This document shows, piece after piece, positions 44,081 to 49,244 of a stretch of 64,000 nt of DNA. Location: NCBI GenBank assembly GCA_013388835.1, contig JACAEL010000014.1, positions 161,528 through 225,527 on the forward strand, written 5' to 3'. Made by a program: the position numbers and the translations under genes. Source of the stretch: Candidatus Thorarchaeota archaeon. Its GTDB lineage: Archaea; Asgardarchaeota; Thorarchaeia; Thorarchaeales; Thorarchaeaceae. Numbering within the stretch: position 1 is the first letter of the stretch; each line of letters starts with the position of its first letter. Under the pieces are notes generated by a model that saw only the letters and a list, made by a program, of their open reading frames with translations, was not told where the DNA came from and did no database searches.

Positions 44081-44821
44081 ATGAGTGACCGACTCCGTTC
44101 CAATCTCTACGCATCGATTGCCACACTTGACCAGCTCAAGAAGATGTACGAGATGGGCGTTGTGGATGTGTCCTCCTTCCGGCGGGAGTCGGAGGCACTC
44201 CTCCAAGACATTGCGGAGAGTATTGATGCCCTTCGCCGGGATGGTCTTGACGTCTCCTCCTTCTTTTGGGGTGAACGGATTCCCGAGTGCTTTCCCGAGG
44301 CCACAAGGCTGATCGAGGTCAGTTCGGGTCGGTCAGACACGGCCTCCCAGTCAGTTGACATGGAACGCTACTACGACCAGATAGGCCTTGCAGCACTTGA
44401 TGTTGCGACCGCCAACTCCTCAAAGGGGATTATGGGGCTTGCTGAGCTGATAGTCGAAGTGGTGAAGCGCCTCCCTCAGTACAAGAACGTCCGTTATGCC
44501 GACGTGATTGAGGCTGTCAATCGCGTGGCTGAACACGGGCTCATCCCAGGGATACGGACTCTCAGGGGTGGAGTGAAGGTGGTCCAACTGCGTCCCCTTG
44601 AACTGGGGCCGGACCAAGCTGAAGTCATCAACCTCGCTGCAACAAGAGGCTCTGTGACCATCGAAGAGGTCATGATGCAGCTCAAGTGGTCAGAGGACCA
44701 TGCTCGACAGGTTCTCACGAGCCTTGTAGATGCGGGGATGGCAGTCGCCAACGTGCGTCTCAGCACTGGGGGCCGATACCACTTCCCCGGACTCAAGGCG
44801 CGTGATGACACGACAACATGA
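44081..44821 (+). CDS. ESCRT-II Vps22/Vps36-like protein (tandem EAP30 winged helices) with a Vps28-core-like N-terminal domain
   Basis: The C-terminal 150 aa parallel SNF8/Vps22: YYDQIGLAALDV..., IMGLAELIVEV, ADVIEAVNRV, VKVVQLRPLELGPDQAEVINLAATRGSVTIEEVMMQLKWSEDHARQVLTSLVDAGMA...RYHFPGL. The N-terminal 80 aa (NLYASIATLDQLKKMYEMGVVDVSSF...ALLQDI...VSSFFWGERIPECFPEATRLIEV) resemble the Vps28 N-terminal core from memory of the family. ATG at 44081 lies inside ORF 43985-44821. Confidence 0.75.
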   Translation: MSDRLRSNLYASIATLDQLKKMYEMGVVDVSSFRRESEALLQDIAESIDALRRDGLDVSSFFWGERIPECFPEATRLIEVSSGRSDTASQSVDMERYYDQIGLAALDVATANSSKGIMGLAELIVEVVKRLPQYKNVRYADVIEAVNRVAEHGLIPGIRTLRGGVKVVQLRPLELGPDQAEVINLAATRGSVTIEEVMMQLKWSEDHARQVLTSLVDAGMAVANVRLSTGGRYHFPGLKARDDTTT

Positions 44822-44901
44822 CTCAGCACACGCTGTTGACTGCCACTTGGTTGCAGAGTTGAGCATTAGGCGTCACTTTGTCGTGGCTCTCCAGACGCGG
44901 G

Positions 44902-45654
44902 TCAGTACCCGGCTCTTAATCTGACCGCGCCTCTCTTCTGGTCCACCCATTCAGCGCGCTTCGTGGACACAAGGATGTCCATCACGCGGTGCAGGTCTCT
45001 CTCAGGCAGCGTCCCGAACTCCTCATCGTACTCCTGTACTATCAGGGTCCCAACATCAATCAGGACTGAGCCGGTCCTGAGCGACCACGAATAGACCATG
45101 TCCGCCCAGTCCTCCAGAGGTCGCCAGTACACCCTGAGCTGTCTGTGTTTGTTGTCCCACCACTCCGCCATATCTTGGTCCACAAGCCTGTCACCCAGAA
45201 TCCTGAATGCATCTGACTTCCCTACGATGTCTTTGAACGGCATCTCTGCAAGAAAGACTGCGACTGACACTACGTGGAGCCTCCTGCTCTGGCTCCACTT
45301 CAGCAAGAAGTCCGCCCACTCCTCAGCCCACAGCTCGAGATCTTCTCTTCTAGAAGGAATTGTGTACATCCATTCGGAGTCCTTTGATGTCCCCCATGAT
45401 GGCAACAGCAGAGGTGGTTCAGGTTCAACCCGCGTCTGCACGGTGCGTGGTCTGACCTTCTGGCCGGTTGTTTCTGAGGTTGACGCCTCCTGTGTCTCAG
45501 AGGTCACTTCGGCGGTTCTAGTCCTTCTGACGACCACTTCTGGAGTGTGCTCGGTCTCTTCAAGAGTGACCTCGACCTCAGGCTCGAGTTCTGCCACGTC
45601 CTTCGACTCCGCCTTGACATCCTTCTTCGCTCGCGGTCTCTCTTTGACTGCCAA
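44902..45654 (-). CDS. vps25: ESCRT-II Vps25 (EAP20) homologue with a ~90-aa charged N-terminal extension
   Basis: PPLLLPSW..., LWAEEWADFLLKW, and AEWWDNKHRQLRVYWRPLEDWADMVYSW parallel the eukaryotic Vps25 pattern AEW.d......i.WR.peEWa..Iy.W. There is a second WH domain with FGTLPERDL...ILVSTKRAEWVD. The start lies 3 nt after the vps4 stop. Confidence 0.85.
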   Translation of the reverse strand: MAVKERPRAKKDVKAESKDVAELEPEVEVTLEETEHTPEVVVRRTRTAEVTSETQEASTSETTGQKVRPRTVQTRVEPEPPLLLPSWGTSKDSEWMYTIPSRREDLELWAEEWADFLLKWSQSRRLHVVSVAVFLAEMPFKDIVGKSDAFRILGDRLVDQDMAEWWDNKHRQLRVYWRPLEDWADMVYSWSLRTGSVLIDVGTLIVQEYDEEFGTLPERDLHRVMDILVSTKRAEWVDQKRGAVRLRAGY

Positions 45655-45657
45655 TGG

Positions 45658-46974: not shown

Positions 46975-47024
46975 TTTATCCGCAGTTGATGGTCTGTACT
47001 TGAGCAGCTGGAGATGGCGCAGTA

Positions 47025-47642
47025 TTGAAGTCCGTGAAGAAGGCGTTCACATGGGGAAGGAAACGACCCGATGCAGCAGAAGTCAGCAGCCAGCTCAGAG
47101 TCCTCGCAAAACAGCTTGAGCGGGAGAGGAATCGACTGGAGAAAGAGGAACGCGAAAACAAGGCCCGCGCAGTTAAGGCAAGGAAGGAGGGCCATATCGA
47201 GGCGTATCGCATGTACGCCGCCGAGATGGTTCGCTTCAGAAGATACGCACTTGGTGTGGACAGATCGCGTCTGCAGATGTTGAAGATCCTGGCGCATCTG
47301 ACTCGCGCACAGACGACTGCTCGTGCAACGATGGCGCTGGACCAAGTGGCAAGTATCTTGGGCATCATTGGAACCAGCACAGATGCCACCAAAGTGGTGG
47401 AGAACCTCGATGAGATCACTCGACGTCTTGAGGAGTTCGAGATAGAGAGCGGTATCACTGACGAAGCATTCGACATGGCCAGCGGGTCGCAGGTGTCTTC
47501 GGAAGACCTCTCCGCTGCAATGGCTGAGATAGATGCTGCCGCAGGAATGGGCGAGGCCGCACCGGTCGCGGCACGACCGGTTTCCGAAGCTGAGGAGCTC
47601 GAAGAGGCAATAAAGTCGCTCGAGCGAGAACTGGGTGTGTGA
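47025..47642 (+). CDS. ESCRT-III (Snf7 family, Vps2/24/46-like) protein
   Basis: 205 aa with a TTG start (GTG alternative at 47034). The basic helical hairpin is QLRVLAKQLERERNRLEKEERENKARAVKARKEGHIEAYRMYAAEMVRFRR. The C-terminus is acidic and ends in a MIM1-like EELEEAIKSLERELGV. Confidence 0.85.
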   Translation: MKSVKKAFTWGRKRPDAAEVSSQLRVLAKQLERERNRLEKEERENKARAVKARKEGHIEAYRMYAAEMVRFRRYALGVDRSRLQMLKILAHLTRAQTTARATMALDQVASILGIIGTSTDATKVVENLDEITRRLEEFEIESGITDEAFDMASGSQVSSEDLSAAMAEIDAAAGMGEAAPVAARPVSEAEELEEAIKSLERELGV

Positions 47643-47675
47643 TTGACACTACGTCCGAGTAAGACGTCCTGAGAG

Positions 47676-49244
47676 TCATGCGAAGTCCCTGGAACTGCGC
47701 GACAGGTACTCAAGCATACGCCTGTTGATGTAGGACTCCCGCATCAAGTCCCTGTATCTCCTGATGAACTCCTCCGTGACTACCCTTCCCCTCTTCAGAT
47801 CCTCCACCGTGTCTTGGAGGGCCCGACCAATCTCCTCGTGCTCGCGCCGCAGGCGTCTGATCTCCGGAGTGTCACGGCCGTCCCACCGACCCCCTCGGTT
47901 GTAGACCCGTCCGGGTTCCATGTCCTCTTCAGAGTCTGTTGCAAATGGTGGGGCTGCTGAAGTCCTCGGGACCTGTCCAGCCGCCGGATATATGTCCGAA
48001 CTACCTGTCCCGAGAGTATCTCTGTGTACTCCGCCAGTGCTTTTCGTCTGCTGCTGTCTTCTACCGGGCAACAGAAGCGAGTATACCAGCTCCTCAATCT
48101 TGAGCCTTGCGTCGCTCACACCCACATCGTTCTTCTCGAGCCTTCTCACCCTCTGCAGGTCGCTCTGAACGTACTTGTCAAACTTCTTGGCAATCTCGAT
48201 GTAGTCTGTGATAACTCTCTGAGTGTGTTCGTCACAGGCGATTCGTATCTCGCCTTGGCGCAGTTTCAGTACAAGCCGCTTCCTCAGACGGCCATCTTCT
48301 CCCATTGATGTGAGGTAGAGAAGGGGAAAGTCGAAGACAATCTCTCTCTTCTTTCGGATGGTCCCAGTCGCGGCAACAAACAGAATCCTCTTGTTCGTCA
48401 CATAGAGGCAACCGGTCGCCTTGTCTGTCTTCAGAAAGTCGCTACCCACTATCCTGATTTCAGGCAGTGCACACACAGGAAGCTCGTTCACCTGCAATTC
48501 CGAATACTCGTAGAAGCTCGCAAACTCCCTTCTATAGTAGTCTAGTCCTTCGAGCTGAGTCGTGAGTTCTGTGAGTTCACGTGAACAGCTCTCAAGTGCT
48601 TCGTCCACTGACTGTCTGTACTGATTGCCTATGTCTGCAAGACGGCTCACTATGCCTTCGATGAATGGAAACTGATCCACGCTCCACTCAGACTGGTTCA
48701 TCAGACCCTTGGTCTCTGCGGCCATGCGCCTTGCGGATGTGTCAGCTTGATTGACTATTCTGCTCTTGATGCCGGGCAGTTCCTGTTGAAGCTTCTCTGT
48801 TTTGTCTTCCAGCCAACGAAAAGCGAGGAAGTTCGCCATGCGCAGGGAGACAAGCATTCTCTTCGCCATGGTGAGTCTGTTGCTGAACTCCCTTAGCTTC
48901 ACATGACCGTATTGGATTGACATGAATCCCCGTTTCATGTCCTGCCCCAGCCTTCTCCGTTTCTCTTCTATCTCCAGCACCCTTGTGGAGTGGCACTGTG
49001 GGCAGGTCTCTTCGATGTGCTTTCCAGTACTGATGTTCTCAGAGTCGCACTCGGCACACTTTCGAGGTTTCTCGGCATTCTGAACAGTACCGAGACTGGC
49101 GTGGCAGTTTCCGCACACATAGAACTCGTTGGAGCGGGTTGTGAGACAGTCCAGACACAGAAGCTGGCCGCACTCCTCACACATGTGCGTTGCCTTTGTC
49201 GCCTTGCAGGACGCGCATACCTGTGAAGAAGGGTCCTGTCTCAC
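47676..49244 (-). CDS. multidomain protein: B-box-like cross-brace zinc finger, zinc ribbon, coiled coil, PH/GRAM-like domain, C-terminal steadiness-box-like helix pair (candidate ESCRT-I Vps23 analogue)
   Basis: 522 aa. The first zinc finger is C10-x2-C-x8-C-x2-C-x4-C-x2-C-x10-C-x2-C(H); the zinc ribbon is C63-x2-C...C81-x2-C. Residues 100-255 are helical. Residues ~258-356 read GCLYVTNKRILFVAATGTIRKKREIVFDFPLLYLTSMG...LVLKLRQGEIRIACD (PH/GRAM/bPH pattern). Residues ~462-515 read RRLRREHEEIGRALQDTVEDLKRGRVVTEEFIRRYRDLMRESYINRRMLEYL. Confidence 0.6.
   Translation of the reverse strand: MRQDPSSQVCASCKATKATHMCEECGQLLCLDCLTTRSNEFYVCGNCHASLGTVQNAEKPRKCAECDSENISTGKHIEETCPQCHSTRVLEIEEKRRRLGQDMKRGFMSIQYGHVKLREFSNRLTMAKRMLVSLRMANFLAFRWLEDKTEKLQQELPGIKSRIVNQADTSARRMAAETKGLMNQSEWSVDQFPFIEGIVSRLADIGNQYRQSVDEALESCSRELTELTTQLEGLDYYRREFASFYEYSELQVNELPVCALPEIRIVGSDFLKTDKATGCLYVTNKRILFVAATGTIRKKREIVFDFPLLYLTSMGEDGRLRKRLVLKLRQGEIRIACDEHTQRVITDYIEIAKKFDKYVQSDLQRVRRLEKNDVGVSDARLKIEELVYSLLLPGRRQQQTKSTGGVHRDTLGTGSSDIYPAAGQVPRTSAAPPFATDSEEDMEPGRVYNRGGRWDGRDTPEIRRLRREHEEIGRALQDTVEDLKRGRVVTEEFIRRYRDLMRESYINRRMLEYLSRSSRDFA

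Follow-up and report, generated by a model that had tools for sequence, protein, structure and literature searches.

A probable canonical ESCRT gene cluster in a deep-branching lineage of Thorarchaeota

Genes for ESCRT, the endosomal sorting complexes that are required for transport, are found clustered in several lineages of Asgard archaea. The closest described counterpart of the locus reported here is that of Thor AB_25, for which ThorAB25_08990 (SB), 09000 (ESCRT3A), 09010 (Vps4), 09020 (Vps25) and 09030 (Vps22) are among the two-hybrid proteins of Hatano et al. 2022 (Nat Commun, PMC9192718; supplementary file 4). The same study says of Thorarchaeota more than once that they "seemingly lack true ubiquitin homologues", and it identified no UEV proteins in them; the absence of ubiquitin and of UEV-Vps23 from Thorarchaeota is also stated in bioRxiv 10.1101/2023.07.25.550441. 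We analysed a 64-kb stretch of contig JACAEL010000014.1 (assembly GCA_013388835.1, positions 161,528 to 225,527), called the window throughout, which carries five eukaryote-like ESCRT genes at window positions 44081-49244, as found by open reading frame (ORF) listing and Pfam scans. Very probably we have here the canonical ESCRT gene cluster of the Asgard group Thorarchaeota (class Thorarchaeia), in a member of it that branches deeply. Such a eukaryote-like cluster for membrane remodelling is ordinary and already published for this group, which has been reported to be without ubiquitin. The present analysis shows the identities of the genes, the folds of their domains, their orthology and their synteny, and on these we base this reading.

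The Lokiarchaeum locus Lokiarch_37450-37480 (Vps22-Vps25-Vps4-ESCRT-IIIB) has the same core of Vps22, Vps25, Vps4 and an ESCRT-III protein, and its Vps25 is also N-terminally extended. However, the linkage of the two ESCRT-III genes is reversed: in Lokiarchaeum ESCRT-IIIB is linked while ESCRT-IIIA (Lokiarch_16760) is encoded elsewhere, whereas in Thorarchaeota ESCRT-IIIA is linked and ESCRT-IIIB is encoded elsewhere. In Loki-, Hel-, Odin- and Heimdallarchaeota, ubiquitin-system genes are in synteny with ESCRT genes, unlike in Thorarchaeota. The Asgard ubiquitin-ESCRT cluster of the Odin/Heimdall type has linked genes for ubiquitin, E1/E2/E3 and UEV-Vps23, none of which was found in the 64-kb window. 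With eukaryotic ESCRT the thorarchaeal system shares homologous Vps22 and Vps25, an ESCRT-III of the CHMP1/2/3 class and a Vps4 that combines MIT and AAA domains, and the likeness extends to hairpins that may be steadiness boxes and to a GLUE-like PH domain. It differs from the eukaryotic system in being without ubiquitin, UEV, Vps36, a separate Vps28, Vps37 and ESCRT-0; a Vps28-like hairpin is fused to Vps22, and the PH domain and zinc fingers are carried by the presumed ESCRT-I-like protein instead of Vps36.

The features of the locus and of its flanks, with their window positions, are:

42593..43984, plus strand: aspS (aspartyl-tRNA synthetase), conserved flank; Pfam tRNA-synt_2, E 7e-92.
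44081..44821, plus strand: Vps22/EAP30-type ESCRT-II subunit, 246 residues; Pfam EAP30.
44902..45654, minus strand: Vps25 ESCRT-II subunit, 250 residues, TTG start; Pfam ESCRT-II.
45658..46872, minus strand: Vps4 AAA+ ATPase, 404 residues, with N-terminal MIT domain; Pfam AAA.
46873..47024, no strand: 152 nt of intergenic DNA that separate the divergent genes vps4 and ESCRT-III, read directly from the sequence.
47025..47642, plus strand: ESCRT-III of the Vps2/24/46 (CHMP1/2/3, ESCRT-IIIA) class, 205 residues, TTG start; Pfam Snf7.
47676..49244, minus strand: Znr_PH_CC_SB protein, 522 residues; AlphaFold2 model and orthology.
49602-51092 and 51046-52443, plus strand: two genes for PmbA/TldD-family metallopeptidases, the other conserved flank; PmbA_TldD domains, E about 1e-59.
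52458-54407, minus strand: argS, beyond the PmbA/TldD pair.

All five ESCRT genes are real genes, far beyond chance. An earlier note on this DNA, made from the sequence alone, had listed the same five genes with the same coordinates and strands, and its gene identities proved to be right, the Pfam scans supporting the EAP30 and Vps25 assignments above cut-off. It had also named housekeeping flanks, aspS and tldD, for which Pfam shows aspS and the two PmbA/TldD-family genes. The curated Pfam cut-offs are exceeded by four of the five locus proteins, the exception being the 522-residue Znr protein, and an NCBIfam scan of the five proteins gave no family above its cut-off. The spacings given in that note hold as well. 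The stop of vps4 precedes the TTG start of vps25 by 3 nt, and thus vps4 and vps25 probably form one operon; 152 nt separate vps4 from the ESCRT-III gene; and the ESCRT-III and Znr genes are convergent, with 33 nt between their stops. Inside the divergent region, the A/T-rich element TTTAAACGTTTAT at 46967-46979 may be an archaeal TATA box that serves the ESCRT-III gene. A scan of the window with Rfam gave no match.

For a survey of synteny, one genome per GTDB species was scanned, which resulted in 77 distinct loci. Almost all of these are titled Thorarchaeota, with a few having other or generic archaeal labels. The loci were searched by tblastn with nine proteins from the window. The complete order Znr, ESCRT-IIIA, Vps4, Vps25, Vps22 is found in 63 loci; another 12 are consistent with the five-gene order but are cut by contig ends, and there are two exceptions, L059 and L072. 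The orientation is Znr(+) ESCRT-IIIA(-) Vps4(+) Vps25(+) Vps22(-), placed between the pmbA/tldD pair and aspS, and the window represents its mirror image. The flanks, which are argS with the two pmbA/tldD genes on one side and aspS on the other, are almost always kept in the uncut loci. Order and flanks are as in the window also in two thorarchaeal genomes that were reached via homologues. Essentially all species representatives of Thorarchaeota have kept this arrangement. The earlier note had implied that the compactness of the locus is remarkable; this was not borne out, as each of its genes has an orthologue in ThorAB25_08990-09030 and its order is lineage-wide.

The two exceptions are of different kinds. 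In L059 (CP070658.1, a complete Thorarchaeota chromosome; positions 12374-21130) the locus is broken after ESCRT-IIIA, and an unannotated 1087-residue protein, a pyridoxal phosphate enzyme and a phosphoenolpyruvate-utilising enzyme replace Vps4, Vps25 and Vps22. In L072 the vps4-vps25-vps22-aspS block has changed place and lies on the other side of the pmbA/tldD pair.

One of the surveyed loci (L020) is the Thor AB_25 contig, and all five window proteins are orthologous to its proteins. The likeness includes the five genes with their order, orientation and flanks (argS and two pmbA/tldD; aspS), the N-terminal extension of Vps25 with its PSWG motif, and the same ESCRT-IIIA tail. Sequence divergence is the sole difference, identities being 51% for Znr, 66% for ESCRT-IIIA, 77% for Vps4, 46% for Vps25 and 64% for Vps22; the lineage of the window branches more deeply than that of AB_25. 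As the AB_25 orthologues were used in the screen by Hatano et al., the locus has already been published and experimentally examined.

Almost all of the closest homologues of Znr and of Vps22 carry the label Candidatus Thorarchaeota, in agreement with the guess of a Thor-like source in the earlier note. Among 43 thorarchaeal loci, the nearest neighbour of the window is 68% identical (aspS, Vps4, both PmbA/TldD proteins and argS concatenated; 2385 columns), whereas most thorarchaeal species have neighbours at 73-96% over the five concatenated proteins. The window thus appears to come from a deep-branching thorarchaeal lineage without a close match among the species representatives. The Znr protein has no match above 55% identity among these representatives, and the G+C content of the window is about 54%. 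The deep-branching source leaves the reading of the locus unchanged.

Profiles of Vps22, Vps25 and ESCRT-III were built from thorarchaeal orthologues and searched against PDB sequences. Vps22 (Pfam EAP30, E 8e-12, 45.8 bits, cut-off 26.8) is matched by human SNF8 (3cuq_A) at 3e-19, and its ATG at 44081 agrees with the start of ThorAB25_09030. In the AlphaFold2 model of the protein, with a predicted local distance difference test score (pLDDT) of 81, two winged-helix domains come after an N-terminal helical hairpin at residues 2-53, which is formed by helices 2-24 and 30-53. When this model was searched with Foldseek, human and yeast Vps22 ranked first (E 5e-10 to 4e-7).

Vps25 (Pfam ESCRT-II, E 1.1e-11, 45.6 bits, cut-off 27) starts with a charged low-complexity region of about 80 residues, which is followed by a P-x-W-G/E-W-M-Y motif and tandem winged-helix domains. 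For its profile the matches were the Vps25 tandem winged-helix structure 7pb9_A, with E 2.9e-43 and a coverage of 12-169 of 179 residues, and human Vps25, with E 1.9e-8. Residues 1-80 include 18 D/E, 14 K/R and 25 T/S/P/Q, with EPPLLLPSWG coming next. The earlier note had pointed to a charged extension of about 90 residues before PPLLLPSW. The extension is indeed present, but extension and motif occur together in 22 of 22 aligned thorarchaeal orthologues, and it is therefore a trait of the whole lineage and nothing special to this genome. Makarova et al. 2024 (PMC10936438) note that Vps25 proteins of Asgard archaea have additional N-terminal subdomains.

Vps4 is 60-79% identical to the Vps4 proteins of other thorarchaeal loci. 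It matches Pfam AAA at 9e-40, AAA_lid_3 at 2.8e-13 and Vps4_C with 24.3 bits (cut-off 21.3), while the MIT domain (E 1e-6), with 29.1 bits against a cut-off of 30, is 0.9 bit short. Its motifs are a Walker A GPAGCGKT at residue 174, a pore loop KWLGESE at 206 and a Walker B VVFIDELD at 229.

The ESCRT-III protein of the locus (Pfam Snf7, E 1.2e-9, 38.5 bits, cut-off 27.3) could be assigned to a class by its orthologue profile, which matched CHMP1B at 1.1e-12, CHMP2A at 3.9e-10 and CHMP3 at 2.8e-8, as well as CHMP1A, but Heimdall ESCRT-IIIB only at 1.8e-4. These matches place it in the Vps2/24/46 (IIIA) class; no CHMP4, CHMP6 or Snf7 chain was found at E<=1 in this search of PDB sequences. A MIM1-like tail had been described in the earlier note and is present: the C-terminus LEEAIKSLERELGV is nearly invariant in 26 orthologues. 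The MIM1 consensus is (D/E)xxLxxRLxxL(K/R); the tail EELEEAIKSLERELGV has its acidic start and two of its three Leu residues, with an Arg close by.

An antisense ORF of 245 residues (46976-47713, minus strand) fully overlaps the ESCRT-III gene and exceeds it in length, and would mislead a longest-ORF gene caller. This ORF, the choice of a greedy ORF caller, was rejected as a gene because the Snf7 match and the conserved orthologues are on the plus strand.

The 522-residue protein encoded at 47676-49244 is a member of the Znr_PH_CC_SB family (asCOG cog.011556), which Makarova et al. 2024 (mBio, PMC10936438) described and put forward as a component of an Asgard ESCRT-I. In Pfam it gave sub-threshold matches only (B-box, bPH_3, and Vps23_core at residues 479-511). 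Nearly all of its 166 homologues are labelled Candidatus Thorarchaeota, the best being about 53% identical, and an alignment of 42 sequences is strongly conserved over most of its length, except for a variable linker. In the AlphaFold model (mean pLDDT 82), Cys-rich zinc modules (residues 1-91) are followed by three long helices (92-247) and by a beta-sandwich of seven strands that ends in a helix (256-353; a PH/GRAM/GLUE-like domain); a disordered linker (396-455) and a confident helical hairpin at the C-terminus (460-521) come after it. This reproduces the family architecture of zinc ribbons, coiled coil, PH domain and C-terminal steadiness box, the hairpin being the candidate for the last of these. 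In Foldseek searches the sandwich matched PH, GRAM and GLUE domains at probability 1.00, among them the Vps36 GLUE domain 2cay (TMt 0.55) and, with E 7.6e-4 and a root mean square deviation of 3.1 over 116 columns, the PH-GRAM domain of MTMR2.

The zinc module includes six CxxC pairs between residues 10 and 84 (10/13, 22/25, 30/33, 44/47, 63/66, 81/84). C63, C66, C81 and C84 are invariant in the alignment of 42 homologues, and C33, C44 and C47 are nearly so. With the family profile, the N-terminus weakly matched RING, FYVE and B-box fingers (E 0.003-0.2). While three ribbons are described for the family (PMC10936438), the module of the window protein looks like a cross-braced finger of B-box/RING/FYVE type and one ribbon.

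Homology of the steadiness box to the Vps23 core has been asserted from HHpred by Makarova et al. 2024 (PMC10936438), and residues 465-516 of the Znr profile weakly matched three yeast Vps23 core constructs (E 0.11-0.46). The same authors describe Asgard Vps22 as fused to a steadiness box. The hairpin in our Vps22 model agrees with that statement, as does a local Foldseek match of the model to the human ESCRT-I headpiece chain 6vme_V (TMt 0.64, root mean square deviation 2.3, E 0.085). In addition, residues 7-57 of the Vps22 profile weakly matched four yeast Vps28 N-terminal constructs (E 0.11-0.17). The N-terminal hairpin of Vps22 is conserved across the lineage, and on these weak sequence signals and the model it is a candidate for a Vps28-like steadiness box.

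How these proteins might work together can be outlined as follows. The Znr_PH_CC_SB protein is presumed to be an ESCRT-I-like adaptor, whose PH-like domain would bind the membrane while the zinc modules and the coiled coil would bind partners or cargo. Its C-terminal Vps23-like hairpin would pair with the Vps28-like hairpin at the N-terminus of Vps22, and such a pairing would join ESCRT-I directly to ESCRT-II. Vps22, probably homodimeric, would carry Vps25, and Vps25 would nucleate ESCRT-III polymers made of the unlinked ESCRT-IIIB and the locus-encoded ESCRT-IIIA. The MIT domain of Vps4 would then bind the MIM1-like tail of ESCRT-IIIA, and the polymer would be remodelled or disassembled using ATP. 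Ubiquitin has no part in this scheme because the lineage has been reported to be without it. Self-interaction of thorarchaeal Vps22 was found in yeast two-hybrid assays by Hatano et al. 2022 (PMC9192718), and for Asgard proteins in general two-hybrid contacts were seen between Vps25 and IIIB, Vps4 and III, and IIIA and IIIB (same reference). We infer the contact between the hairpins, the membrane binding by the PH domain, the MIT-MIM1 binding and the cellular process that is served.

As a tentative extension of this scheme, the Vps23-like hairpin of Znr may pair with the Vps28-like hairpin fused to Vps22 while targets are picked without ubiquitin, by the RING/B-box/FYVE-like zinc module together with the PH domain. 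We regard this as conceivable but would not yet call it probable. It extends the proposals of Makarova et al. 2024, to which the window adds a divergent set of orthologues and no new component. If it is true, target selection without ubiquitin would represent either an ancestral ubiquitin-independent ESCRT pathway or the secondary replacement of one.

Several points weigh against the reading of the locus and its proposed working. The steadiness-box signals in Pfam are weak (Vps23_core E 0.17, VPS28 E 0.22), as are those against yeast Vps23 and Vps28 (E about 0.1-0.5), and the assignments have the generic geometry of a helical hairpin as their only other support. When the 85 N-terminal residues of Vps22 were searched against PDB as a single sequence, noise was obtained (designed proteins, lysozyme); the marginal Vps28 matches came from the orthologue profile alone. 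The MIM1 consensus is matched only in part, the central Arg being replaced by Ala and one Leu by Ile. Finally, for this genome the absence of ubiquitin was seen, and ESCRT-IIIB was sought, within the 64-kb window.

The components could be just as described here and yet serve mainly in cell division, abscission or membrane repair, as for the Cdv system of TACK archaea, with vesicle formation or the sorting of cargo not their main job. In that case the Znr_PH_CC_SB protein would act in site targeting, by analogy with CdvA. Crenarchaeota divide by means of ESCRT-III and Vps4, and the thorarchaeal lineage is reported to have no ubiquitin to mark cargo (PMC9192718). The window and the Cdv system (CdvA/CdvB/CdvC) share the core of ESCRT-III and a Vps4-type ATPase. 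A relation to CdvA is suggested by the similarity between the steadiness-box hairpin and CdvA that was found with HHpred, and CdvA-like proteins with an N-terminal zinc ribbon and a coiled coil have been described (Makarova et al., PMC10936438). The best NCBIfam match of the window Vps4 is CdvC, at 1.1e-84. However, the NCBIfam scores are far below the cut-offs (284 against 650 for CdvC, 20 against 370 for CdvB), the locus has neither a CdvA gene nor a CdvB with a winged helix, its ESCRT-III ending in the MIM1-like tail instead, and it includes ESCRT-II subunits, which the Cdv system is without. Membership of the Cdv system was rejected on the sub-cut-off CdvB and CdvC scores and as no CdvA-like gene was found. 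A main role in division, abscission or repair seems somewhat unlikely, though it deserves to be kept in mind.

That the locus is the canonical cluster of its class also has to be weighed against the implication of the earlier note, according to which it would be a reduced or novel variant of the Asgard ubiquitin-ESCRT system, specific to this genome, that has lost ubiquitin, UEV and the second ESCRT-III. The note was correct in that the locus has no ubiquitin or UEV gene and a single ESCRT-III gene (Pfam, phmmer and hmmsearch). In Pfam scans of 58 ORFs, ubiquitin, ThiF/E1, E2 (UQ_con), UEV, JAB, VPS28 and a second Snf7 were not found in the window. No paralogues were detected among its six-frame ORFs of at least 50 residues with human ubiquitin, UBE2D2 and the ESCRT proteins of the window as phmmer queries. 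A profile from 35 ESCRT-IIIB loci had no match in the six-frame ORFs of the window, and it missed even the window's own ESCRT-IIIA. The divergence of the window proteins, which are 43-79% identical to their thorarchaeal orthologues (68% to the nearest neighbour over five proteins), could also be taken to favour a variant of this kind.

However, the five-gene order is present in 75 of the 77 Thorarchaeota loci, with flanks almost always kept in the uncut ones, so that the composition is a trait of the lineage and not of this genome, and the absence of ubiquitin and UEV from Thorarchaeota had already been published. With human ubiquitin as tblastn query, no match was found within 10 kb of the locus in any of the 77 thorarchaeal loci. 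An ESCRT-IIIB does exist in Thor AB_25 (ThorAB25_07240), well away from the locus, and 35 metagenome contigs with close relatives of ThorAB25_07240 have a gene of the locus within 8 kb in none of the cases (0/35). As ESCRT-IIIB is unlinked, the statement that there is only one ESCRT-III is true of the locus and probably not of the genome, and it does not hold for the system. We consider a genome-specific reduced variant highly improbable.

Contamination, or a recent transfer of the eukaryote-like genes out of a eukaryote and into the archaeal contig, has nothing but their eukaryote-like Pfam families in its favour and is negligible, and eukaryotic contamination was rejected in view of an even G+C content of 0.53-0.56 over the locus and its flanks, intronless and tightly packed genes with TTG and GTG starts, and archaeal housekeeping genes on both sides within a synteny that is shared by 75 of 77 Thorarchaeota loci.

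As Thorarchaeota have ESCRT-I-like, ESCRT-II, ESCRT-III and Vps4 proteins but are reported to be free of ubiquitin, they lend themselves naturally to testing if the eukaryotic link of ubiquitin to ESCRT is an ancestral one or was added later. This argument is already in the literature, and the locus has already been used in published interaction screens. The value of the present locus is limited to its deep-branching orthologues, which can help to analyse how the proposed interface between the hairpins and the N-terminal motif of Vps25 are conserved and co-evolve, and to the demonstration that the synteny, including the flanks, is nearly invariant across the class.

A few features of the surrounding DNA may be added. 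The gap between the start of the Znr gene and the first PmbA/TldD gene is unusually long, with at least 357 nt (49245-49601, possibly extending to about 49706) compared to 185 nt in L002. The first PmbA/TldD ORF is annotated with 496 residues, about 35 more than its 461-residue orthologues, and thus its true start may be a Met near 49707. An A/T-rich element, AAATATATAAA, is located within the gap at about 49425, and Rfam gave no match in this gap.

At 55920-56888 (plus strand), a 322-residue protein with a weak, sub-threshold match to Fuz_longin_1 (longin domain, E 4e-4) is encoded next to a TFB gene and four genes from the ESCRT cluster. An unannotated gene for 277-278 residues occurs at the equivalent position in two other thorarchaeal genomes (L001/L002 and L003), and the ESCRT locus may have in this gene a longin-like neighbour that is conserved. 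A membrane protein with a Yip1 domain (E 1e-19) is encoded at 60591-61394 (minus strand); the Yip1 family is linked to eukaryotic Rab and vesicle trafficking. The 395-residue protein at 30232-31419 (minus strand) has an IFT52 GIFT-domain match above the Pfam cut-off (E 4e-16) and additional matches of coiled-coil type.

A DNA-repair cluster of HerA (DUF87), Mre11 (Metallophos) and Rad50 is found at 20577-27080 (plus strand) and is preceded, at the position expected for NurA, by a gene for 431 residues without Pfam match. Two hydrophobic proteins of 355 and 146 residues, also without Pfam match, are encoded at 40453-41965 (plus strand) between an aminotransferase gene and a small MarR-like gene (42250-42483). 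Beyond aspS, the two thorarchaeal genomes that were inspected differ from the window, with a PAS sensor in one (L001/L002) and a methyltransferase in the other (L003).

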